Assembly: GCA_017991395.1 (NCBI GenBank)
Contig: JAGOQQ010000004.1
Span: forward strand, 32,430-96,429
Direction: 5' to 3'
DNA: 64,000 nucleotides
DNA from: Minisyncoccota bacterium
GTDB lineage: Bacteria; Patescibacteriota; Minisyncoccia; Phycocordibacterales; UBA9973
A model generated the notes under the pieces. The model made no database searches and was not told where the DNA came from. It saw only the letters and a list, made by a program, of their open reading frames with translations. Positions 7,396 through 44,195 of the stretch are shown here, in pieces (the first letter of the stretch is position 1; every line of letters starts with the position of its first letter). The translations under genes were made by a program, and so were the position numbers.

Positions 7396-7436
7396 TTACC
7401 CCTCCGCCCTTCGGGCACCTCCCCTCTAGGGGAGGC
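7396..7436 (+). repeat. GC-rich two-hairpin repeat element, copy A
   Basis: ttacccctccgcccttcgggcacctcccctctaggggaggc. One of six family members in the window. Confidence 0.7.
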
Positions 7437-7657
7437 TATAAACCCAATTTACCACTTTCCCACATATTTGCAAGAATTCAGCGGTCACGAAATACTTGTC
7501 AAAACCGTAAATATGAATATAATAGATGTATATCAGTTTATGAAAAGTTTTTAAATACTTTTAGCTTTAAAAAGTACAAGAGAAATTATTAGGAATTTAT
7601 AGCATTTTGTATTTAGCCAGTTGCTAGGCGCTAGATGCTAATTGCTGAAAAAAATAT

Positions 7658-9553
7658 ATGTCAAAAATAATTGGTATCGACTTGGGTACAACAAACAGTG
7701 CGGTCGCAATAATCGAAGGAGGAAATCCAAAGATTGTTGAGAATATCGAAGGATCACGCACCACACCGTCAATCGTTGGAATTGCAAAAAATGGTGATCG
7801 ACTTGCAGGACTTCTTGCAAAGCGACAAGCAGTAACAAATCCCGAAAACACAATTTACGGTATCAAAAGATTTATGGGTCATCATTTTGCTGATCCAGAA
7901 ATTCAGAAGGACCGAGGTGTAATGCCATACAAAATTCAGGAAGGAACAGATAAAGGTGTAGAAGTAAAACTCGGTGACAAGTTTATGCGACCAGAGGAAA
8001 TTTCTGCGATGATTCTTTCAAAGATCAAAGCTGATGTAGAAGCAAAACTTGGTGAAAAAGTTACCGAGGCAGTCATCACTGTGCCAGCATACTTCAATGA
8101 TGCACAACGAAAAGCAACAAAAGACGCCGGACAAATTGCAGGACTTGATGTGAAGCGTATCATCAACGAACCCACAGCAGCGGCACTTGCATACGGATTT
8201 AATTCAAAGAAAGATGAAAAGATTGTAGTGTACGACTTTGGAGGAGGAACATTTGATGTGTCTGTGCTTGAAGTATCTGGTGACGTGATCGAAGTGAAGT
8301 CGACAGATGGAGACTCGCACATGGGAGGACGAGATATTGATCGAAAAATCATAAATTGGATTGCAGACGAATTCAAAAAAGAATCTGGAATCGATGTAAC
8401 AAAAGATCCACTCGCACTTCAGCGTCTCGATGAAGCAGCTGAAAAAGCAAAACATGAACTTTCTACAACTCCTGAAACAGAAATCAATATTCCTTTCATC
8501 ACATCTGGTGCTGATGGACCAAAACACCTTCTTTTGAAGATGAGTAGAGCAACACTTGAATCACTTGCACAAGAATATGTGGATCGTTCAATCGAAATCA
8601 CGAAGCGCGCACTCGAAGCATCGCCATTTAAGATGAGTGAAATCAATGAAATCATTATGGTCGGAGGACAAACACGAATGCCGGCGATTGTGGATGCGGT
8701 CAAGAAATTCTTTGGTGGAAAAGAACCAAATCGTTCTATCAATCCAGACGAAGTAGTAGCACTTGGAGCAGCGGTGCAAGCTGGAGTGCTTCAAGGAGAT
8801 GTGAAAGATGTGCTTTTGCTCGATGTGATTCCACTTTCTCTCGGAATTGAAACACTTGGAGGAGTTGCGACAAAGCTTATCGAAAGAAACTCAACTATTC
8901 CAACTACAAAATCTCAAGTGTTTTCAACTGCAGCAGACAATCAAACATCGGTAGAAATTCACATCACACAAGGTGAACGTCCAATGGCAACAGACAACAA
9001 ATCTCTCGGACGATTTATTCTCGATGGGATTCCACCATCACCACGAGGTATTCCGCAGGTAGAAGTATCATTTGATGTTGATGCAAACGGTATCTTGCAA
9101 GTAAAAGCAAAAGACAAAGCTTCTGGAAAAGAACAGACAATTCGTATCGAAGCTTCATCAGGTCTTACAGATGAAGATATCAAAAAAATGCAATCAGATG
9201 CTGAAGCACATGCAGAAGAAGACAAGAAAAAGAAAGAAGTTGTGGATATCAAAAACACTGCAGAAATGACACTGTATACTGCTGAAAAATCTCTCAAAGA
9301 TGCTGAAGGAAAAGTGTCTGATGAAATAAAATCAGGAGTTCAATCAAAGATTGATGCAGTGAAAGCGGTAAAAGATGGAACTGATGGTAGTGCAATTATG
9401 AAAGCCACAGAAGAACTCTCAGCTGAGCTTTCAAAGATCGGCGAAGCGATGAACAAAGCACAAGAAGCACAACCTCAAGCAGAAACTCCTGCACAAGAAG
9501 AAAATGTGCGTGAAGCAGAAGTGAAAGAAGAGGGAAGTGAAGAAGCAAAATAA
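7658..9553 (+). CDS. dnaK: Chaperone DnaK (Hsp70)
   Basis: [14 protein letters not shown] and [10 protein letters not shown] motifs, with the full ATPase and substrate-binding domains. Confidence 0.97.
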
Positions 9554-9565
9554 CATAGACTAGAG

Positions 9566-9597
9566 CAAAAGAGCCTTATTTATAAGGCTCTTTTGCG
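9566..9597 (+). terminator. Terminator after dnaK
   Basis: aaagagccttatttataaggctcttt hairpin plus T-run. Confidence 0.55.
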
Positions 9598-9603
9598 TAT
9601 CTG

Positions 9604-10008
9604 TTGACTTTGTTGTTAATATATGCTACTATATATTCAAACAGAACACTAAAAACACAAAAAATGAAAACAAAAAACGTAGGCCCACATTATGCGGCAG
9701 AAAATCGCGAATGGAGAGCATTTGTGAAGTATGGACTTCCTGGGATCATCGTCTTAGTACTTTCCCTAGCTTCATTCCATGGTCTTGCGAGTAAGTATCC
9801 TGCATTGTTAGTTATATCACTTGTGGTGTTTCTCGCAGGTCTTTATTTTGATGGCAAAAAAAGTGTACACACAGTAGCAATGATAAAAATAATAAACGTT
9901 CTTATGGTGTTTATCGCAGTTACACTCCTCACAGGAAATGCACTCTTTGCAGTCGTTGGGATCTCTACAAGTTTCGTGCTTGCAATATTGATTCTCCAAA
10001 AAACTTAA
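9604..10008 (+). CDS. Small integral membrane protein, hypothetical
   Basis: Three hydrophobic helices. Start may be the internal MKTKN at 9664. A terminator hairpin follows at 10020-10046. Confidence 0.4.
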   Translation: MTLLLIYATIYSNRTLKTQKMKTKNVGPHYAAENREWRAFVKYGLPGIIVLVLSLASFHGLASKYPALLVISLVVFLAGLYFDGKKSVHTVAMIKIINVLMVFIAVTLLTGNALFAVVGISTSFVLAILILQKT

Positions 10009-10093
10009 TTGTATTTTTCAGCCCCGTATTCTCGGGGCTTTTTTCTTTACATTTTTTCTAGAAAATGGTTATATTTGTAAAAAACTGAACACT

Positions 10094-10666
10094 ATGAAAA
10101 CTATACAAGAAAGTACCATGAATGGTCGGCTCAATCACGACGCGCTTCTTTCGAGAATACAAGATTCATTGAATTTCAAAGAAATTGTCCCTCCTTTTCG
10201 ATATGTAGAGTTACCGCTGTTTTCAAACAAAGTCGAATTCGAAGTTTCTTCAAAGTATAATGAAAAATTTTTGTACGCGCTTTATCGTCGAGCAATCGAA
10301 ATATCACAGTTTAGATTCAAGACTGTGGGTGTATTTCAACTAGGCGATAATTTTTTAAGACACGTAACAGATTATTCAAAGATTTCCATTGAGTCAAATG
10401 GAATTGTTTTTTCAGATGAGAATTTCATTTCTGGAAATTGGAATGTGCATGTTTACACAAATGAAGCACAAGACGAAGATTTAAAAAATCGCGCACCAAC
10501 ACTAATTCTAAATTTTGATAAGAAGAATCCAAGACACATGAGTACATTTCATGAATTATCACCTTATTTCCCATATTCAGATAATGTAAAAATTAGGAAT
10601 GTTCCTTTCAACGAATATTCTCAACTACTTATTCCTTCAAAATTCCTCTTCTATCTTTCTTGGTGA
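10094..10666 (+). CDS. Hypothetical protein
   Basis: ORF between dnaK and dnaJ, followed by the terminator aacccgtctataaggcgggtttttt (10688-10713). Confidence 0.4.
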   Translation: MKTIQESTMNGRLNHDALLSRIQDSLNFKEIVPPFRYVELPLFSNKVEFEVSSKYNEKFLYALYRRAIEISQFRFKTVGVFQLGDNFLRHVTDYSKISIESNGIVFSDENFISGNWNVHVYTNEAQDEDLKNRAPTLILNFDKKNPRHMSTFHELSPYFPYSDNVKIRNVPFNEYSQLLIPSKFLFYLSW

Positions 10667-10849
10667 TATTGTAATTAAGTAAACATTAACCCGTCTATAA
10701 GGCGGGTTTTTTCTTTTCAATTGTCCGCGATTTTTGCGTACGCAAAAAGATTGTTGAAATCGTGTGTGATTATTGTTATAATGCTTATATTAAAAGGTGT
10801 TAATGCATTTTAAAGCTAGAAGCTAAATGCTAGTAGCTTTTTTCTCGAT

Positions 10850-11935
10850 ATGTCAAAAGATTATTACGAAATTCTTGGTGTTTCAAAATCTGCGTCAAAG
10901 GACGAGATAAAGAAAGCCTTTCATAAACAAGCTCACAAATATCACCCAGACAAAAAGGATGGTGATGAGGCAAAATTCAAGGAGGCAAACGAAGCCTACC
11001 AGACTCTTTCTGATGACAGTAAACGCGCACAGTACGATCAATTCGGAAGTGCTGGACCACAAGGGTTTGGTGGAGGTGGATTCGGTGGCGGACAAGGTGG
11101 CTTTGGAGGATTTGATTTTTCTCAAGGACAGGGTGGTTTTGATATGGGCGATCTAAACGATATTTTCTCAGATTTTTTTGGTGGTGGAATGGGCGGAGGC
11201 CGAGGTCGCGCACGACGAGGACGTGATATTTCAACCGAGATTTCAATTTCATTTGAAGAATCAGTGTTTGGTGTAACAAAAAAAATTGCCATTTCAAAAC
11301 AATCTGCATGTAAGACATGTAAAGGATCAGGTGCAAAAGATTCTGGTGTGGAAACGTGCAAAAAATGTAAGGGTGCTGGTCAGATTCGAGAAGCAAAGCG
11401 TACATTTATGGGAACGTTTGAAACAAATCGAATGTGTGATGACTGTGATGGCGCAGGAAAAGTTCCAAAAGAAAAATGTGCTACGTGTCATGGAAGTGGC
11501 GTCACCAAAGGTCAAGAAGAATTAGAAGTGAATATTCCCGCTGGAATACAAAATGGACAAATGGTACGACTCACAGGCATGGGTGAAGCAATCACACGCG
11601 GACAAGCAGGAGATTTGTTTATCAAAATAAATATTCCTCCGCACAAAACATTTACACGTGACGGATTCAACCTCCACACCGATCTTCATGTCAAACTCAC
11701 CGACGCACTCCTGGGTGCAGAACACACACTCCACACACTTGATGGAGATGTCAAAATAAAAATCCCAGAAGGAATAACTCATGGCGAAATGTTGCGTATA
11801 AAAGAACGTGGTGTTCCAAACGGTGCACGAGGAAAGCGAGGTGATATCTATGTCCGCGTTCTGATTAAAATCCCTCACAAACTCTCACGCAAAGAAAGAG
11901 AAATTGTGGAGGGACTTAAAGAAGAGGGATTGTAA
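10850..11935 (+). CDS. dnaJ: Chaperone DnaJ
   Basis: J-domain (YYEILGV...HPDK), G/F-rich linker, and four CxxCxGxG zinc-finger repeats. Confidence 0.95.
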
Positions 11936-12086
11936 TAAAAGGCAGGAGTTCAGAAGAGCGATAAGTGGAGAATAACTATAAGCGTAATATTTTTTAAAAC
12001 ACAAAGTTTATCTTGTGTCAATTTGACATTAATAATAAAAAAAGTATTATTATTAGTAATATGTTCAATCTATAAAAATAAATATC

Positions 12087-12278
12087 ATGATGAAAAGTTC
12101 TTTAAAACAAGAAACTCCTTACAAAAAGGTGCAACTTCCTGGCTTAGTCGGGGGTGGTTTAAAAAAATTGACAGGCAGAGTACCGCTCGTTTTAAAAAAA
12201 ATGGTTCGTTATCCTGGTGCTACTAGTTGGACGACTAGCGGTACTCATAACGATATTGATGGGTCTGACACAACTTGA
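12087..12278 (+). CDS. Candidate graspetide (microviridin-like) precursor peptide
   Basis: 63-aa ORF 78 nt upstream of the MdnC-like ATP-grasp and on the same strand. TTGACA at 12023 with a -10-like element near 12047. C-terminal Thr/Ser/Asp-rich stretch TSWTTSGTHNDIDGSDTT. Confidence 0.35.
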   Translation: MMKSSLKQETPYKKVQLPGLVGGGLKKLTGRVPLVLKKMVRYPGATSWTTSGTHNDIDGSDTT

Positions 12279-12355
12279 TAAAATATTTAACACACTATTA
12301 AAACACCTGCCTTTGTGGGTGTTTTGTTCATTTAAAACAGTATAAAAAAATAAAA

Positions 12356-13324
12356 ATGATATTAGCACTAGGTACATCGGCATCTCAAGATTTTGTTGCA
12401 TTTAAGGCAATAGAGAGTGAGTTAAAAAAACGAAAAAAGGAGATAATCTTATTCAAACAAGATTTATGTTTAAATAATGAAATTATTTCATATAAATTTA
12501 GCGAAAATGGTTCGTTTGTTCCATTAATTAATATTGAAGGAAAAAATTATGACATTGGCAGTTTTGAAGGCGCCATCAATCTTCACCCAATGCTTCCGAG
12601 AGAGCTCTTGGGTTTTTCAAAAATTAGCTTACGGCAATTTATCTGGAAACAATTTTATGAAATGCGTAGAGGTGTCTGGATGATTCTTAAAGATAAAAAA
12701 TGGCTAAATGATCCATTTAGTGCAGAGATGGCAGAGAATAAAGTATTTCAATTAGTTGCTGCTCAAAAAGTTGGGCTAACTATTCCGGCAACGCTAATTT
12801 CGTCATCTCCTTCAGATGTAAAAAATTTTTATTTAAAATGTGGCGGATTAATGATTAACAAAATTTTGTCTACTAGTCCAATTTTAGATAAAGTTACGTT
12901 TACTCACCTTGTTGATGAATGCGATATTGATGATAATTTGTCTATCCTCATTTCCCCAGCTATATTCCAGCCTCTTATTAAGAAAGAGTATGAATTAAGA
13001 ATAACTATAGTTGGAAATAAGTTGTTTTCAACCAAAATAAATTCACAGGAAAATTTGGCAACATCGATAGATTGGAGGGTTCATCCTGTAAAAAAGAAGT
13101 CATCTATACAAATGGAGCCGACTTTAATTCCACTAGAGCTAGAAGTTAAAATTCTTAATTTAATGAGACTATTAAACTTAAATTATGGTGCAGTTGACAT
13201 GATAGTCACACCACAAGGTGATTATGTGTTTCTCGAGATTAATCCATCAGGTCAGTGGTACTTTATACAAGAGAATACACGTTGCAATGATATTGCAAGT
13301 GCAATAGCAGATTTTTTATGCTAG
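12356..13324 (+). CDS. ATP-grasp RiPP maturase, MdnC/MvdD-like (graspetide ester/amide ligase)
   Basis: ELRITIVGNKLFSTKINSQ...DWR and LNYGAVDMIVTPQGDYVFLEINPSGQW match recalled microviridin ATP-grasp ligase MdnC segments (LRITIVG..INSQ..DWR; LNYGAIDMIVTP...FLEINP). N-terminal leader-binding region ILALGTSASQDFVAF. Confidence 0.8.
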   Translation: MILALGTSASQDFVAFKAIESELKKRKKEIILFKQDLCLNNEIISYKFSENGSFVPLINIEGKNYDIGSFEGAINLHPMLPRELLGFSKISLRQFIWKQFYEMRRGVWMILKDKKWLNDPFSAEMAENKVFQLVAAQKVGLTIPATLISSSPSDVKNFYLKCGGLMINKILSTSPILDKVTFTHLVDECDIDDNLSILISPAIFQPLIKKEYELRITIVGNKLFSTKINSQENLATSIDWRVHPVKKKSSIQMEPTLIPLELEVKILNLMRLLNLNYGAVDMIVTPQGDYVFLEINPSGQWYFIQENTRCNDIASAIADFLC

Positions 13325-13325
13325 T

Positions 13326-13811
13326 ATGGTAAACATGGTAATTCAATTACCATGTTTTTTTATGCAAAATAATATTTTACAGAACTTAATAAGTGAAATG
13401 TGTGAAATTGATCAAAAAACAAGAAAAATGGCTTTTGACCAAATTCAAAAAACAGGGGAAAGCTTCTCTATTTTTAATCTCATGATCTACTCTGTTGACG
13501 GCATTCATCAGCAGAGAATAAAACAAATTATAAAAGAATATGGTTATCCAACTAAAGAAAAAATTGGAGTAGATATTCTTAAGAAATTTTGGCTAATCGT
13601 TCAACATCAAGATATGGATGTATTTTTACAAAGAGAATGTCTGAAGAATTGTGATTTTGACATAGAAGAAAAGTCTCATCTGACGGATCGTGTCTTAATC
13701 AATGAGGGAAAAAAGCAAATGTATGGAACTCAGTTTTCGCAAGATATATCTGATGAAGACAGAATTATTTATAATAAAAACAGAGCAGAGGTCGGGTTGG
13801 TTGCTATATAG
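13326..13811 (+). CDS. Hypothetical protein, translationally coupled to the ATP-grasp
   Basis: Starts 2 nt after the ATP-grasp stop. No recognisable motifs. Confidence 0.45.
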   Translation: MVNMVIQLPCFFMQNNILQNLISEMCEIDQKTRKMAFDQIQKTGESFSIFNLMIYSVDGIHQQRIKQIIKEYGYPTKEKIGVDILKKFWLIVQHQDMDVFLQRECLKNCDFDIEEKSHLTDRVLINEGKKQMYGTQFSQDISDEDRIIYNKNRAEVGLVAI

Positions 13812-14020
13812 TTAACAGGAGGCACCAGAAATGGCGCTTTATGTATTGACAAAATAAGAAATAATGATATTATATAAACGTATGACATTTAGACATAAAA
13901 ACATTCGAAATATTGTGGCCCTCTCTGGGTACTGCAAACCAAATATTTTGGCTGGTTTTTGTGTTGTAAATTAAACTCACATTCTAAATTTTAGAACTCA
14001 AACACCAGCAAGAACTGCTG

Positions 14021-14626
14021 GTGTTTGTTCATTTAGAATTGAATATGAAAAATATCAAAACTCAATCAGTAATGTTTCTTCAAGGAAAGAGACTTTATCT
14101 GCGCCCTGTCGAGCGAAACGACATTCCTTTACTTCAAAAATGGATAAATGATCCAGAAGTAAGAAAATATCTCAATAATTCTTTTCCAATGTCATTAACA
14201 GACGAAGAAAAATATTTTGAAAGAATTTCGAATAGTTCGAAAAATGATGTTACTCTTGCGGTGGTAAGAAAGAAAGACAATGTACTACTTGGAAGTGTTG
14301 GTCTACATAAGATTGATTATATAAACGGCACTGCTTCTACGGGTTCAATGTATGGTAGAAAGTCGGAGTGGAACAAAGGGTATGCAACCGAAGCAAAAAT
14401 GATTTTGCTTGAGTATGCTTTTATGACACTTAATTTAAGGAAAATTTGCAGCGTTGCAATTTGTGGCAATATTGGGAGTATAAAACACAATATGAATTGT
14501 GGTTACAAGAAGGAAGGCATTAGGAAAAGTCATTATTTTCGTGACGGACAATATCATGACGCTGTGATGCTTGCGGTTTTCAAAAAAGATTGGGAAGAAG
14601 TTTTGAAGAAAAATTCAAAAAAATAA
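14021..14626 (+). CDS. GNAT family N-acetyltransferase (RimJ/RimL-like)
   Basis: KRLYLRPVERNDIPLLQKWINDPEV is the GNAT N-terminal pattern, and the acetyl-CoA-binding core is downstream. Terminator at 14632-14660. Confidence 0.7.
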   Translation: MFVHLELNMKNIKTQSVMFLQGKRLYLRPVERNDIPLLQKWINDPEVRKYLNNSFPMSLTDEEKYFERISNSSKNDVTLAVVRKKDNVLLGSVGLHKIDYINGTASTGSMYGRKSEWNKGYATEAKMILLEYAFMTLNLRKICSVAICGNIGSIKHNMNCGYKKEGIRKSHYFRDGQYHDAVMLAVFKKDWEEVLKKNSKK

Positions 14627-15972: not shown

Positions 15973-16002
15973 AATTTACAGCACCAGAAATGGTGCTTTT
16001 TA

Positions 16003-22725: not shown

Positions 22726-22737
22726 TATAAAGTAAAT

Positions 22738-27317: not shown

Positions 27318-27523
27318 ATTAATAAGTATAAAGCTAAAAGTTGAAAGCTGAAAGGGGATTTCAGAAGAAGTTCAGAAAGCGCTGAAAATTAGTTTGCAAT
27401 ATATGCTTAGTTTGTCAAATTTTTCCCTCATATTCTCATATATATTCCTTATGCTTTGGGCTTTTAGCTTTGAGGTTGCTTTTTCTTGCATTTTTCTGCA
27501 AATAATATATAATCTTCCTACAT

Positions 27524-27862: not shown

Positions 27863-27917
27863 CTCAATTAAAACCCACCCGAAAGGGTGGTTTTTTGAAA
27901 CCGATTCGTATGGAATA

Positions 27918-27962
27918 AGCCTGACCTAGAGGGGAGGTGTCACGAAGTGACGGAGGGGTAAG
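27918..27962 (-). repeat. GC-rich two-hairpin repeat element, copy B (reverse orientation, variant stem GTCAC/GTGAC)
   Basis: Reverse complement reads cttacccctccgtcacttcgtgacacctcccctctaggtcaggc. Confidence 0.65.
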
Positions 27963-28317
27963 AATTAACAACCTCAGTTATCTTTTCACAACACGAATCA
28001 AAACTTTCTATAATTTCATTGTTTGTAAAACGAATTACTTGAACTCCAAGATTTTTCAAATCTTTACTTCTGTGTTCATCATAATTTTTTGATTTATCTG
28101 AATCAAAGTGTGAATCTCCATCAATCTCGATTGCGAGCATGATTTTAGGAATATAAAAATCCAAAATATAGTTTCCGACGGGTCGCTGTCGAATACATTT
28201 TGGTTCTAGGTTTCGCAAAAAATCGTACCAAATTTTTTTCTCACAAAATGTCATATTCTTTCTCAAATCTTTTGCGCGACTTTTGAGGTTTGAATTGTAG
28301 TTTTTGTAGGATTTCAT
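27940..28317 (-). CDS. DUF559-type endonuclease-like protein (restriction-endonuclease fold)
   Basis: LAIEIDGDSHFD is the hallmark EIDG..H of DUF559/Vsr-like domains. Confidence 0.55.
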   Translation of the reverse strand: MKSYKNYNSNLKSRAKDLRKNMTFCEKKIWYDFLRNLEPKCIRQRPVGNYILDFYIPKIMLAIEIDGDSHFDSDKSKNYDEHRSKDLKNLGVQVIRFTNNEIIESFDSCCEKITEVVNSYPSVTS

Positions 28318-28323: not shown

Positions 28324-28366
28324 TTTTACCCCTCCGCCCTACGGGCACCTCCCCTCAAGGGGAGGC
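28324..28366 (+). repeat. GC-rich two-hairpin repeat element, copy C (stem GCCCtacgGGC)
   Basis: ttttacccctccgccctacgggcacctcccctcaaggggaggc. Confidence 0.7.
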
Positions 28367-28451
28367 TTGGGCTCACTAAAGTCTAAAGACTAGCGACTAA
28401 AGACTGCATTTTTCTTCTTTCAGCTTTAGACTTTTGGCTTTTAGCTATGCC

Positions 28452-29066: not shown

Positions 29067-29167
29067 TGAAAGTTGTCAGTTGTTAGATTTTAGTTGTTAG
29101 TAGATACTTTAGATATAATAATATATTTTTTTCACTTTTTTTAAGAAAAAAATTCTTATAATTCATT

Positions 29168-29209
29168 CTTACCCCTCCGCCCTTCGGGCACCTCCCCTCA
29201 AGGGGAGGC
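29168..29209 (+). repeat. GC-rich two-hairpin repeat element, copy D
   Basis: cttacccctccgcccttcgggcacctcccctcaaggggaggc, followed by a degenerate word array (atccgcg/atccgtg/tctagt). Confidence 0.7.
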
Positions 29210-29294
29210 TTCATACATCCGCGACCATCCGTGGCTCATATCCGTGTAAAATCCGCGTCTAGTCAGCGTTAAATCTGCGTCTAGTTCGCGACTG

Positions 29295-37665: not shown

Positions 37666-37738
37666 TACTTTGTATCATAGGAATAAAGCATAAAGAAAAG
37701 CCCCATTACGGGGCTTTTTTATTGCAACAATCATGAAA

Positions 37739-38047
37739 TTACATACCAGGAATGCTTATAGAATTAAAAATGTTTTTTGCATCAATGCTTGCATGTTTTG
37801 AATATCTTTGGATATCATGCCGGGTCAAATTAGTCTCTGATACAATTTTATCTATTTCATTTGAATCAGTATTTAGAAGATCACCGAGTTCAATTTTGGT
37901 TTCAAGGATTTTGTCTCGATTTTGATTTCGCCTAAACAACCACATTGTGAGTGTATAGTGGGTTTCCAAAACACGAATGTCTGGATTTGAAATAATTAAT
38001 TCATTGAGATTCTTTGATCGCTCGTTCGAAGTTCCTACAGTCATCAT
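37739..38047 (-). CDS. Hypothetical protein
   Basis: ORF only. Confidence 0.3.
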   Translation of the reverse strand: MMTVGTSNERSKNLNELIISNPDIRVLETHYTLTMWLFRRNQNRDKILETKIELGDLLNTDSNEIDKIVSETNLTRHDIQRYSKHASIDAKNIFNSISIPGM

Positions 38048-38097
38048 TTTTTTGTGTTTTTTAAGGTTTCAACTATTTATACAGTATTTCTATATGT

Positions 38098-38952
38098 GTG
38101 TCAATAATCGCAATTTGTCACTTACGCGATAGAATAGAGACAATGGAAACAACGGAAACGCTTTCATACAAAGTGAAGACGGCGGTCTTTGAAGGTCCTT
38201 TGGAGCTTCTTCTTTCACTTATCGAATCACGAAAGCTTTTCATCAACGAAATTTCTCTCGCTCAAGTCACCGAGGATTATATCTCGTATATTCGCACACT
38301 CAACGAACGTTCAATTAGTGATATCACAGGATTTATCGGTATCGCTGCGACACTCATACTCATCAAATCTCGCTCGCTTCTGCCGGGAATTGCTCTCACG
38401 CAGGATGAAGAAAAAAGTATTGTCGATCTCGAATCACGACTTCGCATGTACCAAGTTATCAAAGAGGTCAGTGAGGACATGAGAAGAGTGTATGGAAAAA
38501 ATATTATATTTACCGCACCGGATAAACGCACCATGTCATTTGAGGATTTATTTGTTCCTGATGAACGAATATCCACTCAGACAATGCTCACGTGTGCATA
38601 TGATGTCATTCATGCATTGCCCAAAAAGGAGGCTCCGCTCCCAAGTGTTGAAATAAAAAAGGTGTTTAGTATCGAAGAAATGATAGACTCGCTGACGTCC
38701 CGCATCACCAGTGCGATGAAAATGTCGTTCAAGGATTTTGCAGAAAGTCACTCTGGTGACGCTGAAACTCACAAAGAAAAAAAGGTGTATGTCATCGTGA
38801 GTTTTCTTGCTATGCTAGAACTTGTACGCCAAGGTCTCGTTGATGTAGTTCAACACAGCGCATTTGATGATATGGAAATTGTAAAATACGAAGAAATTAC
38901 AATTGAGAGAGTGGATGATTCAGAGGATGAACTCACCGACAGGCCTTCATAG
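38098..38952 (+). CDS. scpA: Segregation and condensation protein A
   Basis: FEGPLELLLSLIESRKLFINEISLAQVTEDYISYI is the ScpA N-terminus. Start may be the internal METTE at 38143. Confidence 0.8.
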   Translation: MSIIAICHLRDRIETMETTETLSYKVKTAVFEGPLELLLSLIESRKLFINEISLAQVTEDYISYIRTLNERSISDITGFIGIAATLILIKSRSLLPGIALTQDEEKSIVDLESRLRMYQVIKEVSEDMRRVYGKNIIFTAPDKRTMSFEDLFVPDERISTQTMLTCAYDVIHALPKKEAPLPSVEIKKVFSIEEMIDSLTSRITSAMKMSFKDFAESHSGDAETHKEKKVYVIVSFLAMLELVRQGLVDVVQHSAFDDMEIVKYEEITIERVDDSEDELTDRPS

Positions 38953-38957
38953 TGTGC

Positions 38958-39075
38958 TTTACCCCTCCGTCCTTCGGACACCTCCCCTCATAGGGGAGGC
39001 AAGAATCCAGGATTCTCGTGCTCAATGTTCTAGTGTCCCGTGATTTTACGCTCTACGCTCCACGTTCTACGTATT
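38958..39075 (+). repeat. GC-rich repeat element, copy E, with a 75-bp extension shared with copy F
   Basis: tttacccctccgtccttcggacacctcccctcataggggaggcaagaatccaggattctcgtgctcaatgttctagtg...cgctctacgctccacgttctacg. Confidence 0.7.
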
Positions 39076-39121
39076 ACGAATCTTCCTACTTCCTACTTAT
39101 TACTTACTACCAACTAACTTC

Positions 39122-39688
39122 ATGACTTTATCCGCACAAATCGAAGCACTGCTTTTTTATAAAGGTGAATCACTTACTTGCCAAGAAATGGCAAAGATTT
39201 TGAAAGTTACTGAAAGTGATATTGAAGAAGGATTGCGATTGCTCACACAGTCGCTTGAGGACCGTGGTTTGACATTACTCCAGATTCACAATCAATACAC
39301 ACTCGGCACACGAAAAGAAGCGTCACAAATTCTCGAAGAACTTCGCAAAGAAGAGCTCAATAAAGAACTTTCAAAAGCGTCTCTCGAAACACTCGCAGTG
39401 ATACTGTACAAAGGTTTTGCCACTCGTGGTGACATCGACTATATTCGCGGAGTAAACACAAGCTTCATTTTGAGAAATTTGCTTATGCGTGGACTGATTG
39501 AAAAAGCTGTAGATAAAGATGATTCAAGAAAGCTCGTCTACGCACCCACAATCAAGACTCTACAGTATATGGGTATCACAAGTCTCGACGAACTCACCGA
39601 CCGTGACAAAGTGATTCGTGCACTCGAAGGAGTAATCGAAGATACAAAAGATGATTTACAGGAAATAGGTGAGTCAGCCGAACAATAA
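39122..39688 (+). CDS. scpB: Segregation and condensation protein B
   Basis: IEALLFYKGESLTCQEMAKIL, with two winged-helix repeats. Confidence 0.85.
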   Translation: MTLSAQIEALLFYKGESLTCQEMAKILKVTESDIEEGLRLLTQSLEDRGLTLLQIHNQYTLGTRKEASQILEELRKEELNKELSKASLETLAVILYKGFATRGDIDYIRGVNTSFILRNLLMRGLIEKAVDKDDSRKLVYAPTIKTLQYMGITSLDELTDRDKVIRALEGVIEDTKDDLQEIGESAEQ

Positions 39689-40658
39689 TCAAATGGATAA
39701 AGAATGGAAAGTTGAACTAAAATTTTTGTTTGCATTTTTTGCCGTGCTTGTGCTCGGTGTGATGTACTTTTATGGATTTGGGCAAATTCGTATTCAACAA
39801 CAACTCATCGCGTCAAAAATCGCCCAAGTACCACAAGTGTTTGAAGGGTACACTCCAAATGCCCGCTCAGTCTTTGTCTACGCACCCAAAAGCGACTATA
39901 TTCTTTATGCGCATCACGAACTCACACCGCTTCCACTTGCGTCTCTTGCAAAGATTATGACGGCGACTGTGGCGCTTGATGTTATGGATACTGGAGGACG
40001 TGTGCTCGTTGACGAAGAAGCACTCAAAACATACGGCGAAAACGGTCTCATGATCAATGAATCATGGGTACTTAGGGATCTCATTAAGTTTATGATGTTT
40101 ATTTCATCAAATGACGGAGCAGAAGCTATTGCTCGACATCATGATTCGTATTTGATATCAAATGATCCACTCAACAGCACAACATTTGTTTCAAAAATGA
40201 ATTCAACCGCACAAACACTCGGACTTTCTTCACTTTCATTTCAAAATTCGTCTGGACTTGATGAAGGGAACACAGCGACAGCATTTGGTACTGCAAAAGA
40301 TATTGCTCAGTTGTTCTACAAATTGCATTTTGAACACAGTGATATTGTAGAAAATAGCGCCATTTTCAAACAAACATTTACAAGCATAGACGGCATACCT
40401 CATGCAGTCACAAACACAAATGTCTTGCTTGAGTACGATTACGATAGAATTATAGGCTCAAAAACAGGATACACAACCACTGCCGGTGGAAATCTAATAG
40501 TTCTCCTTGATACACCACTCGAAGAACCCGTGGTACTTGTGGTACTCGGAAGCACCATCGACGGCAGGTTTGGCGAAATGCAAACAATCCTGGCTGAAGC
40601 TCGAGAGCTGACCGACGCCCTGTATTCACTTGGTCTTTCATTCACAAATCTAAAATAA
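39669..40658 (+). CDS. D-alanyl-D-alanine carboxypeptidase (PBP5/6-like, S11)
   Basis: SxxK motif in LASLAKIMTATVAL, SSNDGAEA (SxN), and KTGYT (KTG). Confidence 0.8.
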   Translation: MSQPNNNQMDKEWKVELKFLFAFFAVLVLGVMYFYGFGQIRIQQQLIASKIAQVPQVFEGYTPNARSVFVYAPKSDYILYAHHELTPLPLASLAKIMTATVALDVMDTGGRVLVDEEALKTYGENGLMINESWVLRDLIKFMMFISSNDGAEAIARHHDSYLISNDPLNSTTFVSKMNSTAQTLGLSSLSFQNSSGLDEGNTATAFGTAKDIAQLFYKLHFEHSDIVENSAIFKQTFTSIDGIPHAVTNTNVLLEYDYDRIIGSKTGYTTTAGGNLIVLLDTPLEEPVVLVVLGSTIDGRFGEMQTILAEARELTDALYSLGLSFTNLK

Positions 40659-40685
40659 AGGTAATATAGTATAATAAAAAGCACT

Positions 40686-41738
40686 ATGAGTATAATCAAA
40701 GTAATCTTTCCCACAATATTGAGTTTCGTCATTGGTATGGCAATCACGCCATTTTTTGCACACTATTTTTACAAATATAAACTTTGGAAATCTGTCAGTC
40801 GCAAAGAAAACAATCCACACGAAATGTCACAAGCATTTCAACAAATTCACAACGGTCATGATGAAGTCAAAACTCCACGTGTGGGAGGAATAATTATTTG
40901 GGCATCTGTCGGACTGACATCTCTTTTACTTTTTATACTTTCTCGAGTATTTCCAAATGACATTAGCACAAAGCTCGAATTCGTAAGTCGAAATCAAACA
41001 TGGTTGCCATTTCTTGGACTTTTCATTGGAGCACTCATTGGACTCTTCGAAGACTTCTTGGAAATATACGCAAACTCAAAAAAGTTTATTCACGGACTTT
41101 CAAGTCGGTATCTCATTTCTATCGTGGTCTTGATTGCCGCACTTTGTGGCTGGTGGTTTTATTCAAAGCTTGGCATGACTTCAATTGCGATTCCGTTTAG
41201 TTATTTTCGACTCGAGCTCGGATACGCATTTATTCCATTTTTTGTTCTTGTGATGCTTGGAACATTTTCAAGTCGAGTTATCGACGGCATAGATGGACTC
41301 GCAGCAGGTGTAATGGCAAGTATTTTTGGCGCATTCACCGTGATCGCCTATTCGCAAAATCAAATCGACATCTCGGCACTTTGTGGAGTCATTACTGGAA
41401 GTATCCTTGTCTTTCTATGGTTCAATATTCCACCAGCGCGATTTTATATGGGAGAAACAGGAATGCTCGCGCTCACAGTGACGCTCGCGATTGTGGCATT
41501 CCTCACCGACTCAGTGCTCTTGCTCCCAATCATTGGATTTCCGCTTGTAGCTACTTCTATTTCGTCTGCACTTCAAATTTTTTGGAAGAAAAACTTTGGC
41601 AAAAAAGTATTCAAGATCGCACCACTCCATCATCATTTTGAAGCATCAGGATGGTCTAGGCCCAAAATTACTATGCGGTATTGGGTTGTGTCTGTAATAT
41701 GTGCGATTCTCGGAATTCTCATTTCACTATTTAGTTAA
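40686..41738 (+). CDS. mraY: Phospho-N-acetylmuramoyl-pentapeptide transferase
   Basis: DGIDGLAAG and NIPPARFYMGETG, with the multi-transmembrane topology. Lies between the dac and ftsW genes. Confidence 0.8.
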   Translation: MSIIKVIFPTILSFVIGMAITPFFAHYFYKYKLWKSVSRKENNPHEMSQAFQQIHNGHDEVKTPRVGGIIIWASVGLTSLLLFILSRVFPNDISTKLEFVSRNQTWLPFLGLFIGALIGLFEDFLEIYANSKKFIHGLSSRYLISIVVLIAALCGWWFYSKLGMTSIAIPFSYFRLELGYAFIPFFVLVMLGTFSSRVIDGIDGLAAGVMASIFGAFTVIAYSQNQIDISALCGVITGSILVFLWFNIPPARFYMGETGMLALTVTLAIVAFLTDSVLLLPIIGFPLVATSISSALQIFWKKNFGKKVFKIAPLHHHFEASGWSRPKITMRYWVVSVICAILGILISLFS

Positions 41739-41746
41739 TATCTTTT

Positions 41747-42868
41747 ATGCTCAGAAAACTCTTTCAAAAAAGCGATAAAGTCTTTTTGGGAATTACTCTC
41801 TCGCTTGTCGTGATTGGAGTTGTTGTTTTTGTATCTGCGTCACTCGGTATTCTGGCACGAAGTGAACAAAAATTTTACGGCGTAGTATTCAATCAAATTT
41901 TGTTTGGAGTCATTTTCGGAATGAGTGCTCTTGTGATAATGATGAATTTTGATTACCAAAATTTAAGAAAGTACGCATTTCATATTCTTGTTGGCACACT
42001 CATACTCACCGCACTTGTATTTGTACCAGGACTTTCATATGAACACGGAGGAGCGAGACGATGGATTTCGATTGGTTCTATCCAATTTCAACCTGCAGAA
42101 TTTTTGAAAATTGGATTCGTGATTTATTTTGCAGCATGGCTCACATGGATGAAAAATAAGGTGCATGATTTCAAAAAAACACTTTTACCATTTAGTATTT
42201 TGCTATTGGTTATCGCAGGAATACTTCTCAGACAGCCAGATACCAAAAGCTTGATTTTGATTGTAGTGGCAGGAGTTGCGATGTGTATTGTCGCGGGAGT
42301 TCCGTGGAAATATGTACTTGGTTTTACAGCCGTGGCAGCGGTTGCATTTGTGGGTTTTGCATTTGTAAAAGGAGATTATCTAAAAGATCGAATCAGTACT
42401 TTTATACGCCCATCAGATGACACACTCGGAAAAAGTTGGCAGATCACTCAGTCACTAAATGCGATTGGGTCCGGAGAAATGTTTGGTAGAGGACTCGGTC
42501 AGAGCGTTCAAAAATTTGGAAATCTCCCCGAACCACAAGGTGACTCTATTTTTGCAGTACTCGGAGAAGAGTTTGGATTTATTGGTACAACCATCGTGGT
42601 CATCTTGTATTTATTTTTTGCACTTCGTGGACTTCGCATTGCATCTCATGCACCGGATCAATTTGGAAAACTTCTCGCCACAGGACTGATTGTGTTGATT
42701 CTCGGTCAATCATATCTCAACATCGCATCACTTGTAGGACTTTTCCCACTCACGGGAGTACCACTTGTGTTTATGAGTCATGGAGGTACATCGATGATGA
42801 TTGCACTTGCCGCGACGGGAATTGTGCTCAATATTTCAAAAGCGAAGCGTGCACAGAGCCAAAAATAA
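41747..42868 (+). CDS. ftsW: SEDS-family peptidoglycan glycosyltransferase FtsW/RodA
   Basis: Ten transmembrane helices and conserved PEPQGDSIFAVLGEEFGFIG. Confidence 0.85.
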   Translation: MLRKLFQKSDKVFLGITLSLVVIGVVVFVSASLGILARSEQKFYGVVFNQILFGVIFGMSALVIMMNFDYQNLRKYAFHILVGTLILTALVFVPGLSYEHGGARRWISIGSIQFQPAEFLKIGFVIYFAAWLTWMKNKVHDFKKTLLPFSILLLVIAGILLRQPDTKSLILIVVAGVAMCIVAGVPWKYVLGFTAVAAVAFVGFAFVKGDYLKDRISTFIRPSDDTLGKSWQITQSLNAIGSGEMFGRGLGQSVQKFGNLPEPQGDSIFAVLGEEFGFIGTTIVVILYLFFALRGLRIASHAPDQFGKLLATGLIVLILGQSYLNIASLVGLFPLTGVPLVFMSHGGTSMMIALAATGIVLNISKAKRAQSQK

Positions 42869-42918
42869 CTGTATAGTGAAGGTACTTATTAGTCACATCT
42901 AGCAATTTATCAAATCAT

Positions 42919-44064
42919 ATGAAAATCGTATTCACTGGTGGAGGGACCGCAGGACATTTTTATCCAAACATTGCGATCGCTGAAAATTTCTACAATCTAG
43001 TTGAAGCTGAGAACATTGTTTCAGTTGAACTTTTTTATTTTTCTGATACTGAGTACGACAAGTCAGCACTATATGAAAACAAAATGAAATTTGTGAAAAT
43101 TCCTGCAGGAAAGCTTCGAGTAGGTGGAGGCGGGATTCAAAACTTTTTTGATATGTTTGTCACTGCATACGGAATACTCATTGCTATCATGAAGCTCTAT
43201 TCAGTGTATCCCGATGTGGTAATGGCAAAAGGTGGATACGCGAGTTTTCCTACGCTTTTTGCAGCACGCTTGCTCAAAATTCCAGTGGTCATTCACGAAT
43301 CAGATTCTACACCAGGACGCGTGAGTCAATGGGCAGGGAAGTTTGCACAACGAGTCGCAGTCTCATACGAAGACGCAGCAAAATTTTTTAATCCTGCAAA
43401 AGTTGCACTCACAGGACAACCTATTCGCGAAGAATTGAAGAGTCCTGCAAGTGAAGGCGTGTTCGATTTCTACAAACTCGACCCAACAGTTCCCGTAGTT
43501 CTTGTGCTTGGAGGTTCACAAGGTGCAGAAATCATCAACAACGCTCTTTTGGACGCACTTCCAACTCTTTTGCCAAAGTATCAAATCATTCATCAAACAG
43601 GCATGAACAATCTTGAGTCAGTCAAAGGACAAGCCGATATTACAATGGCAGACAGCAAAGATCTTCTTAGAGATCGATACCGAGCAATCGGATTTCTCAA
43701 CGTGCTTGGAATGCGGATGGCGGGCGGATCATCATCTGTGGTCATCACTCGTGCGGGTTCAACACTTTTTGAAATCGCATCATGGAATACTCCATGCATC
43801 GTGATTCCAATCACCACATCACAAGGTGATCATCAACGCAAAAATGCATACTCATATGCTCGTAGTGGTGGATGTGTCGTGATTGAAGAAGCCAATTTGA
43901 GTCCGGCGATTCTCGCACAAGAAGTAGAAAAAATTCTTGATGAAGAACCACGACGACTCAAAATGATTGAAGGTGCGAAAAGTTTTATTGGTGCAAACAA
44001 CGCAGGCCTTGTCATTGCACAAGAATTGCTCTCGATTGCACTGTCGCATGAGACGAAGGAATAA
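42919..44064 (+). CDS. murG: UDP-GlcNAc:MurNAc-pentapeptide-undecaprenol GlcNAc transferase
   Basis: MKIVFTGGGTAGHFYPNIAIAE is the MurG G-loop, and the C-terminal GT-B domain is present. Confidence 0.9.
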   Translation: MKIVFTGGGTAGHFYPNIAIAENFYNLVEAENIVSVELFYFSDTEYDKSALYENKMKFVKIPAGKLRVGGGGIQNFFDMFVTAYGILIAIMKLYSVYPDVVMAKGGYASFPTLFAARLLKIPVVIHESDSTPGRVSQWAGKFAQRVAVSYEDAAKFFNPAKVALTGQPIREELKSPASEGVFDFYKLDPTVPVVLVLGGSQGAEIINNALLDALPTLLPKYQIIHQTGMNNLESVKGQADITMADSKDLLRDRYRAIGFLNVLGMRMAGGSSSVVITRAGSTLFEIASWNTPCIVIPITTSQGDHQRKNAYSYARSGGCVVIEEANLSPAILAQEVEKILDEEPRRLKMIEGAKSFIGANNAGLVIAQELLSIALSHETKE

Positions 44065-44065
44065 G

Positions 44066-44195
44066 GGACGTTGTTCATAGAACATGGAGCGTAGAGCGTA
44101 AACATAAAACACTAGAACGTTGAGCACAAGAACCCTGGATTCAAGCCTCCCCTAGAGGGGAGGTGCCCGCAGGACGGAGGGGTAAAAAGTAATAA
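44066..44195 (-). repeat. GC-rich repeat element, copy F (reverse orientation), with shared extension
   Basis: Reverse complement reads ttttacccctccgtcctgcgggcacctcccctctaggggaggcttgaatccagggttcttgtgctcaacgttctagtg... Confidence 0.7.

Follow-up and report, generated by a model that had tools for sequence, protein, structure and literature searches.

The window, a 64,000-nt stretch of a contig from a Minisyncoccota bacterium, contains nine copies of a GC-rich repeat and a gene for a small DUF559 endonuclease that is bracketed by two of them. The strand of each repeat listed below is that of its G-rich, folding form, which is opposite to the sign used in the earlier, sequence-only reading of this DNA; base triples are described in the section on architecture.

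7394..7438, minus strand: solo S1 element; R1 64.0 bits, E 7e-14
27917..27963, plus strand: decayed S1 element, inverted repeat on the downstream side of the DUF559 gene; R1 50.5 bits, E 1e-10
27940..28317, minus strand: gene for a DUF559 (Vsr-like PD-(D/E)XK) endonuclease, 125 aa; Pfam PF04480, E 8e-24
28324..28368, minus strand: S1 element, upstream inverted repeat of the DUF559 gene; R1 64.7 bits; 7 triples
29167..29211, minus strand: solo S1 element in the interval between the dnaB stop and the recR start; R1 65.4 bits; 7 triples
38957..39002, minus strand: S1 element 6 nt past the scpA stop codon; R1 55.3 bits
39003..39092, plus strand: extra shared sequence of ~85 nt, inverted match to 44055-44142
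44143..44187, plus strand: S1 element ~80 nt past the murG stop codon; R1 60.4 bits; 7 triples
44231..44278, plus strand: diverged S2 element; R1 26.3 bits, E 9e-5
44282..44332, plus strand: diverged S3 element; R1 14.3 bits, E 0.07; also found independently by the strict detector
44349..44398, minus strand: decayed S2-like element; R1 18.6 bits, E 0.006

Copies and composition of the repeats

The sequence-only reading had reported six copies, and these are found at the positions and in the orientations it gave, with the shared layout of TTACCCCTCCG, hairpin 1, ACCTCCCCTC, loop and GGGGAGGC. The hairpin-1 variants that it listed are correct, the G+C content of the elements is indeed high (57-67% versus 29-44% for the window), and one frame of the elements translates as TPPPFGHLPSRGG. 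The number of copies has to be raised from six to nine, as the covariance model R1 adds three diverged copies at 44231-44398; no further exact copy of the core words is present within the 64 kb. All nine lie at gene boundaries, as had been noted for the original six, with the G-rich strand split 5 versus 4 between the two DNA strands. The strict detector yields 0 matches in shuffled DNA, which excludes chance, and the copies are not fragments of an IS or of rRNA, an origin that the earlier reading had considered. The six GC-rich repeats belong to a known yet unexplained class of bacterial repeats.

Architecture of the elements

The unit, described earlier as a two-hairpin element, consists of three interacting parts rather than of two hairpins and a spacer. 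The conserved 5' segment CCCCTCC is the mirror of the hairpin-2 arm CCTCCCC, and TTACCCCTCCG, instead of being a spacer, is complementary to a third strand, itself the mirror image of the purine arm. The GNA triloops of hairpin 1 (see below) and the A.AT / T.AT / G.GC rule, which is canonical on the G-rich strand only, identify this strand as the informative one, rather than the strand chosen before. The G-rich strand runs from a pyrimidine arm through a loop, the purine arm and a mini-hairpin to a G-rich tail, which matches the purine arm antiparallel by G.GC, A.AT and T.AT triples. As predicted from its sequence, this strand can form a DNA triple helix. A perfect stem of 7-8 bp, which is recovered by ssDNA folding, is found in 7/9 window copies, and 7-8 contiguous canonical triples likewise in 7/9. 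Loop 2 is 12-16 nt long and holds a covarying hairpin of its own; this mini-hairpin measures 11-16 nt where 2-5 nt would be usual.

In an unbiased scan blind to the third segment, the mirror rule was found to be kept in at least 10 distinct hairpin-2 words, and 16 of 50 non-S1 candidates had p <= 0.05 against composition-preserving shuffles, versus 2.5 expected. Runs of at least 8 number 206 in the antiparallel register versus 64 in the parallel one and 7 in shuffles; for distinct purine arms the corresponding figures are 44 antiparallel versus 8 parallel (Wilcoxon p 2e-18). Matches in the parallel register are not rare, since nearly symmetric words are frequent. One three-way change, from C-G.G to T-A.A, was observed (L094 versus L005).

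The proposal that hairpin 1 is preserved by compensatory changes was borne out in an alignment of 76 distinct copies from other genomes of many phyla: 93% of the cells are paired, 86 cells are altered on both sides, 0/500 shuffles reach as high a covariation score, and slid controls are 30-50% paired. Covariation rose with the added copies; limited to the six window copies it is thin. The hairpin-1 loops on the G-rich strand are GNA triloops (or wobble-closed GAA) in 48/76 copies as against 0 on the opposite strand, and the closing pair is C-G in 68/76. GNA loops closed by C-G are a signature of DNA mini-hairpins. Of the two folded forms guessed at earlier, the DNA cruciform is nearer the truth and RNA further off. 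The interpretation of the repeats as a dispersed family under selection for a folded single strand is supported.

Individual copies differ in how fully they display this design. The element at 7394..7438, situated between a PaaX-like gene (-) and dnaK (+), reads CCTCCCC.taga.GGGGAGG.t-GCCCGAAGGGC.GGAGGGG on its G-rich strand, with an unbroken series of 7 canonical triples, of which 6 are G.GC and 1 is A.AT; as ssDNA its predicted fold consists of two hairpins with the tail unpaired. Two mismatches break hairpin 2 in the copy at 27917..27963, whose 3' arm is degenerate (GGTCAGG). The element at 38957..39002, CCTCCCCT.atg.AGGGGAGG.t-GTCCGAAGGAC.GGAGGGGT, has 8 triples, one of them T.AT, and that at 44143..44187 is its inverted partner. 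The ~85 nt of extra shared sequence place these two S1 copies in a longer inverted pair around scpB-murG (5.1 kb), which the repeat search recovers as its pairs I4 and I5 (~85-90% identity through column 130 of a pairwise alignment). In the S2 element at 44231..44278 (CCCCTCCT.tgttg.AGGAGGGG.t-GCCTGGAAGGC.GGGGTGGT) the arm, partner arm and tail have changed in concert, giving 8 canonical triples (6 G.GC and 2 T.AT), and the S3 element at 44282..44332 (CCTCTCCT.agac.AGGAGAGG, a 16-nt linker with a hairpin, and GGTGAGGT) also has 8 canonical triples. The copy at 44349..44398 is inverted relative to that at 44231-44278 and is left with 4 contiguous triples and one stem mismatch.

Linkage of the elements to DUF559 genes

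The product of the DUF559 gene matches PF04480 with 84 bits (cut-off 20.6) over profile positions 2-108 of 109; among solved structures the closest is 3HRL, labelled 'endonuclease-like protein' (E 2e-10), and residues D53, E64, D66, H70, D80 and R83 are common to its relatives. The elements at 27917-27963 and 28324-28368 form inverted repeats around this ORF with their tails pointing inward, making a unit of ~450 bp. The presence of two copies bracketing the endonuclease gene had been overlooked in the sequence-only reading. On the DUF559 sense strand the downstream element reads TTACCCCTCCGTCACTTCGTGACACCTCCCCTCTAGGTCAGGC; it overlaps the ORF by 23 nt, with the stop codon TGA lying inside hairpin 1. 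The G-rich form of the upstream element is on the DUF559 sense strand and its tail, GGAGGGGT, stops 11 nt short of the ATG, a position that suggests a role as the Shine-Dalgarno sequence of the gene.

The geometry of the upstream element recurs at metagenome DUF559 loci. In a sample of 65 independent metagenome clusters, all relatives of one protein with 38-51% identity, perfect elements occur upstream in the G-form in 32/61 clusters, downstream in the C-form in 26/64 and on both flanks in 20/60, against a chance background of ~0.01 per flank (0.009 per window). Of the element pairs that span the gene, 25 have both tails facing inward, 4 are in tandem and 0 have them facing outward. In the majority of loci with both locatable, the tail finishes 1-16 nt upstream of the start codon, so placed that it would usually provide a putative ribosome-binding site, and the stop codon often falls between -22 and +7 nt relative to the downstream element. 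The linkage between DUF559 genes and the elements is tight and orientation-specific across many lineages, and we found no description of it in the literature.

Loop lengths near DUF559 genes are bimodal (2-5 nt or 14-29 nt), and DUF559 proteins are more similar where the loop type is the same (104.7 bits) than where it is different (89.8 bits; permutation p 0.0005), a signal that common host ancestry could inflate. In E. coli the DUF559 ORF ycjD terminates in CACCCTCTCCCTGA, and a TMECO element lies ~170 nt downstream. Among 116 loci selected for an S1 copy, a DUF559 gene is found within <=8 kb in only 2-3. DUF559 coding sequences have been reported to be 14-fold enriched among predicted inversion targets (PMC9881135).

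Relationship to known repeats and nucleases

The elements had been regarded as belonging to no familiar repeat class, but they share the design of the intrastrand triplex repeats published as BoxC, PIT and TMECO (Hoyne & Maher 2000; Holder et al. 2015, PMC4666352), of which they represent a variant whose loop 2 holds a hairpin. Both have the same order of pyrimidine arm, purine arm and reverse-Hoogsteen G-rich strand on one strand (class II purine motif), and both are G/C-rich, dispersed, intergenic, strand-unbiased, frequently in inverted pairs and spread over many phyla. The TMECO triplex was demonstrated in vitro by CD and NMR, with purine-motif triplexes being absent in RNA, while in vivo DMS footprinting of TMECO gave no protection (PMC4666352). 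Loop 2 of TMECO is only 3 nt (TTA or CCG), whereas that of the window elements contains a covarying hairpin and exceeds the 6 or 10 nt at which the published searches capped loops. Nor is the TMECO consensus, CCCTCNCCC N3-6 GGGNGAGGG N3 GGGNGAGGG, matched by the window words, which are CCTCCCC/GGGGAGG/GGAGGGG, CCCCTCCT/AGGAGGGG/GGGGTGGT and CCTCTCCT/AGGAGAGG/GGTGAGGT. The BoxC, PIT and TMECO papers report no associated gene or mobility function; the window elements, in contrast, bracket a DUF559 gene.

The G-rich repeats with a C-tract of the archaeal Methanomicrobiaceae similarly combine an intergenic GC hairpin with an antiparallel G-rich third strand, for which CD and S1 probing support a triplex (PMC8044849). 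Their third strand lies 5' of the hairpin (class I), opposite to the order in the window elements, and neither a hairpin linker nor a nuclease gene has been reported for them. On the G strand, the elements also resemble Whalefall-1 (RF01762), an entry listed as a small RNA without assigned function and reported solely from a whale-fall metagenome: both have two hairpins and, 3' of these, a conserved G-rich segment. Its consensus words UCUCUCC, GGAGAGA and GUGAGG are similar to those of S3, with six positions obeying the mirror rule. No Rfam family reaches threshold, the top match being Whalefall-1 with 19.0 and 18.1 bits against a gathering score of 37; membership in this family was rejected at the 19 bits obtained.

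With regard to organization, the closest likeness is to the REP/BIME repeats and their RAYT transposases (REPtrons), which likewise are short, GC-rich and extragenic, fold in single-stranded form, lie at gene ends and flank, as an inverted pair, a small gene for a DNA-cutting enzyme. Unlike the Y1 HUH transposase of REPtrons, the enzyme here is a PD-(D/E)XK Vsr-like DUF559 protein (Pfam matches are to DUF559, MTES_1575 and PvuRts1I-like only); where REP is a plain palindrome accompanied by a GTAG-type guide, the present repeat has three parts, a predicted ability to form a triplex and a putative mobility. DUF559 is related to the EDxHD homing endonucleases (PMC9403480, PMC3239194), Vsr-like nucleases encoded by selfish genes, in part free-standing ones; one example of the group is I-Bth0305I. 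The latter is located within a phage group I intron and possesses additional DNA-binding regions (PMC3239194), whereas the window protein is a bare 125-aa domain, free-standing between inverted repeats, with a putative nuclease activity.

Proposed explanation and alternatives

We propose, with a probability of roughly 65%, that the repeats are DNA-level intrastrand triplex repeats and that the DUF559 nuclease acts on their folded ends. The two arms would form a Watson-Crick hairpin on the G-rich strand, and the tail, mirroring the purine arm, would fold back antiparallel into its major groove by G.GC, A.AT and T.AT triples, a process requiring a transient single strand or supercoiled duplex. 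The DUF559 nuclease may then recognize or cut the folded ends and so spread or maintain the unit, as RAYT does for REP. Solo copies at gene ends would be non-autonomous relatives, rendering these sites prone to rearrangement.

An action of the two hairpins in transcripts, as a small RNA, a REP-like 3' stabilizer or terminator, or a translational control of DUF559, is unlikely. It could draw on the strong hairpin covariation, a stable predicted RNA fold (-18 to -20 kcal/mol), the weak resemblance of the G strand over its full length to Whalefall-1 (19 bits, E 0.006), and the preference of copies for gene 3' ends (21 convergent versus 6 divergent settings). Moreover, the upstream copy apparently gives DUF559 its Shine-Dalgarno sequence and is hence partly read as RNA. 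However, orientation relative to co-directional neighbours is random in other genomes (17 co-oriented, 18 opposed), which speaks against a dedicated RNA; hairpin 2 is not followed by a T-run; and no Rfam family is reached at threshold for the window and 18 further loci. The C-G-closed GNA loops, moreover, are of the DNA type. A two-hairpin RNA also leaves the mirror rule of the third segment unexplained; with its A.AT and T.AT triples this rule is canonical for no motif but the purine one, reportedly not formed in RNA (PMC4666352).

It is less probable still that the elements are sites for host proteins (nucleoid proteins, gyrase, or replication and termination factors) in which linkage to DUF559 reflects incidental insertion. 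The similarly placed REP/BIME elements do bind gyrase, IHF and Pol I. The present elements are intergenic without strand bias, as was also found for the published repeats (PMC4666352). Against this, the linkage to DUF559 is orientation-specific and closely spaced, the repeats usually containing or adjoining the ribosome-binding site and stop codon, and it co-varies with the clade of the DUF559 protein; further, copy number varies widely among closely related strains, and rearrangements are concentrated at TMECO sites, which are hot spots for them (PMC4666352). A quadruplex of the G-rich strand competing with the hairpin, as suggested for E. coli and archaeal repeats, is the least probable alternative: the S1, S2 and S3 words contain at least four GG runs, and archaeal repeats of similar design toggle between triplex and quadruplex in potassium (PMC8044849), but a quadruplex needs neither mirrored A/T positions nor a conserved complementary pyrimidine arm, and the AGGGGAG...GAGGGGT and AAGGGAG...GAGGGAT subfamilies follow the mirror rule despite having only two G-runs, which makes an intramolecular quadruplex impossible.

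For the triplex repeats with a DUF559 nuclease, mobilization by the latter is what we infer; if this holds, the relation of DUF559 to triplex repeats parallels that of RAYT to REP. A MITE or IS-type transposon would carry terminal inverted repeats, a target-site duplication and, in its autonomous copy, a transposase. Inverted ends are present around the window DUF559 unit. No known transposase domain was detected by Pfam in the window DUF559 ORF, no visible target-site duplication accompanies the six window copies, and a search for a transposition or homing event, a target-site duplication or a clean empty site found none. Repeat arrays confounded cases of the same unit in a different context. 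Close element pairs without a gene between them have no preferred orientation, 34 facing inward, 34 facing outward and 31 being in tandem; the solo copies can thus not be explained simply by deletion from the DUF559 unit.

Copies of the element and covariation of hairpin 1

The sequence-only reading had reported six GC-rich two-hairpin repeats, and all six are present in the window, with their positions and orientations confirmed. On the C-rich strand, on which they had been described, they share TTACCCCTCCG, hairpin 1, ACCTCCCCTC, a loop and GGGGAGGC, the 3' arm being decayed in the 27918(-) copy only. They contain 57-67% G+C as against 29-44% for the window, lie without exception at gene boundaries, and produce spurious proline/glycine-rich ORFs, being read as TPPPFGHLPSRGG in one frame; on all these points the earlier description was accurate. 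The count of six, however, was too low: R1, a covariance model built from 18 copies and applied unfiltered to the window, scores these six at 50-65 bits and adds three diverged copies.

Diverged copies found by R1 in the window
44231-44278, minus strand, diverged copy
44282-44332, minus strand, diverged copy
44349-44398, plus strand, diverged copy

As the lengths of the hairpin and the loop vary, rigid patterns missed copies, and regular expressions together with the covariance model were used instead. A scan of one genome per species with the pattern ACCCCTCCG N9-15 ACCTCCCCTC, which demands neither hairpin-1 pairing nor the 3' arm, gave at least 116 matching loci. The whole architecture occurs in about 100 of the 116 matches listed, which include Deinococcus, Bacteroidota, Bacillota, Synergistota and Alphaproteobacteria, as well as the candidate-phyla bacteria SR1, Nomurabacteria, Saccharibacteria and Uhrbacteria. 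Across 76 distinct copies 93% of the hairpin-1 cells are paired, 86 cells are altered on both sides, and five of the six pairs covary, with a covariation score matched by none of 500 shuffles; slid controls show 30-50% pairing. The claim of covariation was therefore right and has become stronger with more copies, and both the repeat family and its covariation are real.

Copies of S1, the subfamily scanned for here, also occur in more elaborate settings. Three of them stand in tandem with a 61-nt period in a Selenomonadaceae MAG (L006, 3347-3499), where a CRISPR was considered and rejected, its would-be spacers being themselves repeated. In Bacteroidales MAGs (L029, 3280-3760; L095, 6380-6700) the S1 unit lies inside a longer dispersed repeat of 145-277 nt. 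At loci mostly from Reyranella, plus other Alphaproteobacteria/Proteobacteria (L007, L018, L037, L044, L086, L100, L113), every S1 copy is directly preceded by ATG (catgACCCCTCCG) and followed by GAGGGGAGGAAAA; a leader peptide rich in proline (in Reyranella, ATG ACC CCT CCG) was discarded, its reading frame being broken by the variable hairpin length. Logan contigs that encode window proteins exactly (L118-L122, L204) stop within elements, the distance to the gene downstream being 161 nt for scpB and 250 nt for dnaK; thus, the repeats break short-read assemblies in practice.

A third strand conserved with hairpin 2

Read on the G-rich strand, the element comprises a pyrimidine arm, a loop and a purine arm (together hairpin 2), then hairpin 1 within the second loop, and finally a G-rich tail, the complement of which is the 5' segment of the C-rich strand. 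In the three diverged window copies this 5' segment changes with the hairpin-2 arms as their mirror image, and is therefore not a mere conserved spacer.

Words of the element subfamilies
S1: 5' segment CCCCTCC; hairpin-2 pyrimidine arm CCTCCCC; purine arm GGGGAGG
S2: 5' segment CACCACCCC; hairpin-2 pyrimidine arm CCCCTCCTC; purine arm GAGGAGGGG
S3: 5' segment CCTCACC; hairpin-2 pyrimidine arm CCTCTCC; purine arm GGAGAGG

The retrieved loci were scanned for a hairpin accompanied by a homopyrimidine/homopurine hairpin, with the 5' segment ignored, and at least 10 distinct words were found to obey the mirror rule; 16 of 50 non-S1 candidates scored above composition-preserving shuffles at p <= 0.05, against an expectation of 2.5. 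The tail of the G-rich strand fits the purine arm in antiparallel register, G facing G and either A or T facing A, and the base triples predicted from this are exactly those of the purine (reverse-Hoogsteen) motif. Contiguous canonical triples number 7-8 in seven of the nine window copies, and a three-way change from C-G.G to T-A.A distinguishes locus L094 from L005. Runs of at least eight number 206 in the antiparallel register, 64 in the parallel one and 7 in shuffles, and by distinct purine arms the antiparallel register prevails by 44 to 8 (Wilcoxon p 2e-18) in the longest-run version of the test, the 7-mer version being confounded by near-symmetric words. These sequence comparisons show all three strands of a three-part, potentially triplex-forming DNA element to be conserved by covariation. 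The third strand of the hairpin-in-loop form is thereby backed by three-way covariation in natural sequences.

DNA or RNA, and alternative structures

Selection for structure in RNA or in a DNA cruciform had been proposed earlier. The covarying hairpin stands, but our best reading is a DNA-level structure on the opposite, G-rich strand, with the triplex itself predicted for the hairpin-loop variant. On the G strand hairpin 1 has a GNA triloop or a wobble-closed GAA in 48 of 76 copies and a closing C-G pair in 68, C(GNA)G being a classic stable DNA mini-hairpin; none of the C-strand loops in these 76 copies belongs to a known stable class. The computed single-stranded DNA fold of the G strand contains two hairpins and leaves the tail free. 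A structured RNA, with which the hairpin covariation would also be compatible, is not preferred because orientation relative to co-directional neighbor genes is random (17 versus 18), an Rfam search of the window and of 18 loci finds no family at threshold, and purine-motif triplexes are stated not to form in RNA (PMC4666352). The best Rfam match, sub-threshold, is Whalefall-1 on the G strand (19 bits versus 37 needed), and elements of this kind may underlie some motifs filed as RNAs, such as this one. Convergent gaps are favored over divergent ones (21 versus 6, by crude ORF calls).

Other folds fare less well than a purine-motif DNA triplex. A pyrimidine-motif triplex on the C-rich strand suits S1 and was rejected since in S2, S3 and SX the third-strand base opposite A-T is A; S2 does not preserve the complementarity of 5' segment and 3' arm that a Watson-Crick switch would need. 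A G-quadruplex cannot be the general explanation, because some subfamilies carry just two G-runs, and for i-motif and G4 alike the tract numbers do not suit all subfamilies.

Relationship to known triplex-forming repeats

Triplex-forming repeats are abundant in bacteria, fold in vitro and mark unstable genome sites. To our knowledge, repeats of the BoxC, PIT and TMECO type have gone for over 25 years without a function or a gene being assigned to them, and we know of no published work on triplex-forming repeats that offers a function, an associated enzyme or a route of spread. The design of the window elements is that published for the BoxC repeats of E. coli and the 'potential intrastrand triplex' (PIT) elements of Hoyne and Maher (PMC4666352). 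TMECO, described as a class II purine-motif intrastrand triplex of the form CCCTCNCCC N3-6 GGGNGAGGG N3 GGGNGAGGG, folds in vitro by CD and NMR and is intergenic, without strand bias, at rearrangement-prone sites, with negative in vivo footprinting; transposase or integrase remnants were never found near such motifs (Holder et al. 2015, PMC4666352). Archaeal relatives that have also been probed (PMC8044849) have the opposite order of parts to the window elements.

It is very probable (about 0.85) that the window elements belong to this kind of repeat, so that a family first taken to be of no recognized class is a new hairpin-loop variant of a known one. Whereas the second loop of TMECO has 3 nt (N3), that of the window elements has 12-16 nt and holds a covarying hairpin. 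Earlier searches limited loops to <=6 or <=10 nt (PMC4666352), which by inference places the window form outside them, and the variant widens the triplex-repeat class well past the reach of such searches.

A DUF559 nuclease gene between inverted elements

One window ORF, 27940-28317(-), encodes a DUF559 protein (Pfam E 8e-24; nearest structure 3HRL; no match in an exact-sequence look-up) and sits between two inverted elements. The upstream element is in the G-form on the sense strand, with 11 nt between the end of its tail GGAGGGGT and the ATG, and the downstream one is in the C-form, with the stop codon inside hairpin 1. We sampled 80 metagenome loci with relatives of this protein (38-51% identity; 65 clusters at 80% identity), chosen without any repeat information, and elements are visible by eye at nearly all of them. 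A strict detector, calling seven perfect pairs plus seven perfect triples and counted per cluster, gave the following.

Perfect elements at DUF559 loci, strict detector
G-form upstream of DUF559: 32/61 clusters
C-form downstream of DUF559: 26/64 clusters
Both sides of DUF559: 20/60 clusters

The background is 0.009 per window of the same size, and shuffled DNA gave zero matches. Pairs spanning the gene have their tails inward in 25 cases, outward in none and in tandem in four. At most of the loci where both were locatable, 1-16 nt separate the end of the tail from the start codon, and the stop codon often lies -22 to +7 nt from the downstream element. The gene and its two elements thus make up a unit, compact at about 450 bp, that recurs in many lineages: [hairpin 2, linker, tail/RBS] - DUF559 - [tail', linker', hairpin 2'].

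Loop 2 at these loci is bimodal in length, with a classical type of 2-5 nt and a hairpin type of 14-29 nt, and similarity among DUF559 proteins is higher where the flanking loop type is shared than where it differs (104.7 versus 89.8 bits; permutation p 0.0005). Left and right, a pair often carries one word and sometimes elements of two different classes. Among the 116 S1 matches listed, a DUF559 gene is nearby in only 2-3.

We consider it very likely that the linkage is real. Our limited search found no paper linking DUF559 or YcjD to triplex repeats, and this strong endonuclease-repeat association is apparently undescribed so far, though an earlier description elsewhere is possible. Being tight and oriented, it supplies a concrete candidate protein partner for the repeats and a first functional setting for DUF559, a very large domain family of unknown function. 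DUF559 has been grouped with the EDxHD homing endonucleases (PMC9403480, PMC3239194). Predicted inversion targets show a 14-fold enrichment of its coding sequences (PMC9881135), an expected result if inverted repeats overlap these genes. The DUF559 gene of E. coli K-12, ycjD, terminates in CACCCTCTCCCTGA, with TMECO about 170 nt downstream (L203, 1351040-1351827). The fabI-sapF interval holds both in 3375 of 5426 complete E. coli genomes; that of O157:H7 (L205) has a 7.5-kb RND efflux operon instead.

A possible route of spread

We infer that the G strand folds when single-stranded or supercoiled, and that the DUF559 nuclease, being small and without an extra DNA-binding domain, would recognize or cut the folded structure rather than a long sequence. 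Its action could then propagate or maintain the unit, as the RAYT transposase does with REP repeats, and solo copies would be non-autonomous relatives. That DUF559 actually mobilizes the repeats is possible, with the odds somewhat against it. With the same caution, BoxC/PIT/TMECO-type repeats might be the terminal repeats and non-autonomous copies of very widespread miniature selfish elements, whose sole gene encodes a Vsr-like DUF559 nuclease of about 120 aa recognizing a folded DNA triple helix. If so, they would be a structure-guided counterpart of REP-RAYT, ranging from E. coli to Deinococcus, Bacteroidota, Bacillota and candidate-phyla bacteria. The association with DUF559 opens the old question of the nature of triplex repeats to direct test, for which a single oligonucleotide and the 125-aa protein would serve.

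Some results do not favor this scheme, among them the few DUF559 genes near the listed S1 matches and the negative footprinting of TMECO in vivo. Mobility events, target-site duplications and clean empty sites were not seen in a search of the loci for one unit in different contexts, which yielded repeat-array artefacts and, apart from these, a single indel of 815 nt at the tail of an element. In this last case two closely related contigs (L129, 3408-3449; L130, 3415-4230) differ by a segment with two small ORFs, the junction of which is the last base of a triplex-element tail beside a DUF559 gene; in L130 a disruption of about 60 nt also affects the neighboring element. Gene-less close element pairs have no preferred orientation, and these counts lend no support to gene-less inverted pairs as deletion derivatives of the DUF559 unit.

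Other repeats in the window

The window contains several further repeats.

6498-6530 and 7240-7272: 33-nt inverted repeat, 97% complementary
6634-7248, minus strand: ORF between its arms, PaaX_M Cas2-like domain (Pfam E 2e-20)
38957-39092 and 44055-44187: S1 copies sharing about 85 further nt at 85-90% identity
44195-44224: perfect GC-rich palindrome AATGAGCGGCGGCCAAGGCCGCCGCTCATT
53693-53738 and 54281-54326: 46-nt direct repeat, 98% identical

Each arm of the 33-nt repeat holds its own palindrome (ATCCTGAA n5 TTCAGGAT), and the enclosed ORF is a second inverted-repeat-flanked gene, with a repeat type different from the triplex elements. The two extended S1 copies form an inverted pair of about 135 nt bracketing scpB to murG (5.1 kb), a possible inversion substrate. 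The palindrome, which downstream of murG separates an S1 copy from the S2/S3 cluster, looks like a terminator and has a weak sub-threshold Xoo2 match. One copy of the direct repeat lies just upstream of each of two adjacent ORF starts (53734 and 54322), and the repeat may be a duplicated promoter or leader. Short-period (7-11 nt) tracts, such as ACGCTCT/ACGCTCC/ACGTTCT, CGCGTCTAGTCAGCGTTAAATCTGCGTCTA and AGCTTTAGACTTTTGGCTTTTAGC, recur in several intergenic regions near gene starts (repeat families D3, D6, I5 and I13: 39045-39075, 44070-44100, 7195-7225, 29249-29283, 44473-44507, 28396-28451, 44406-44461 and 27330-27359).
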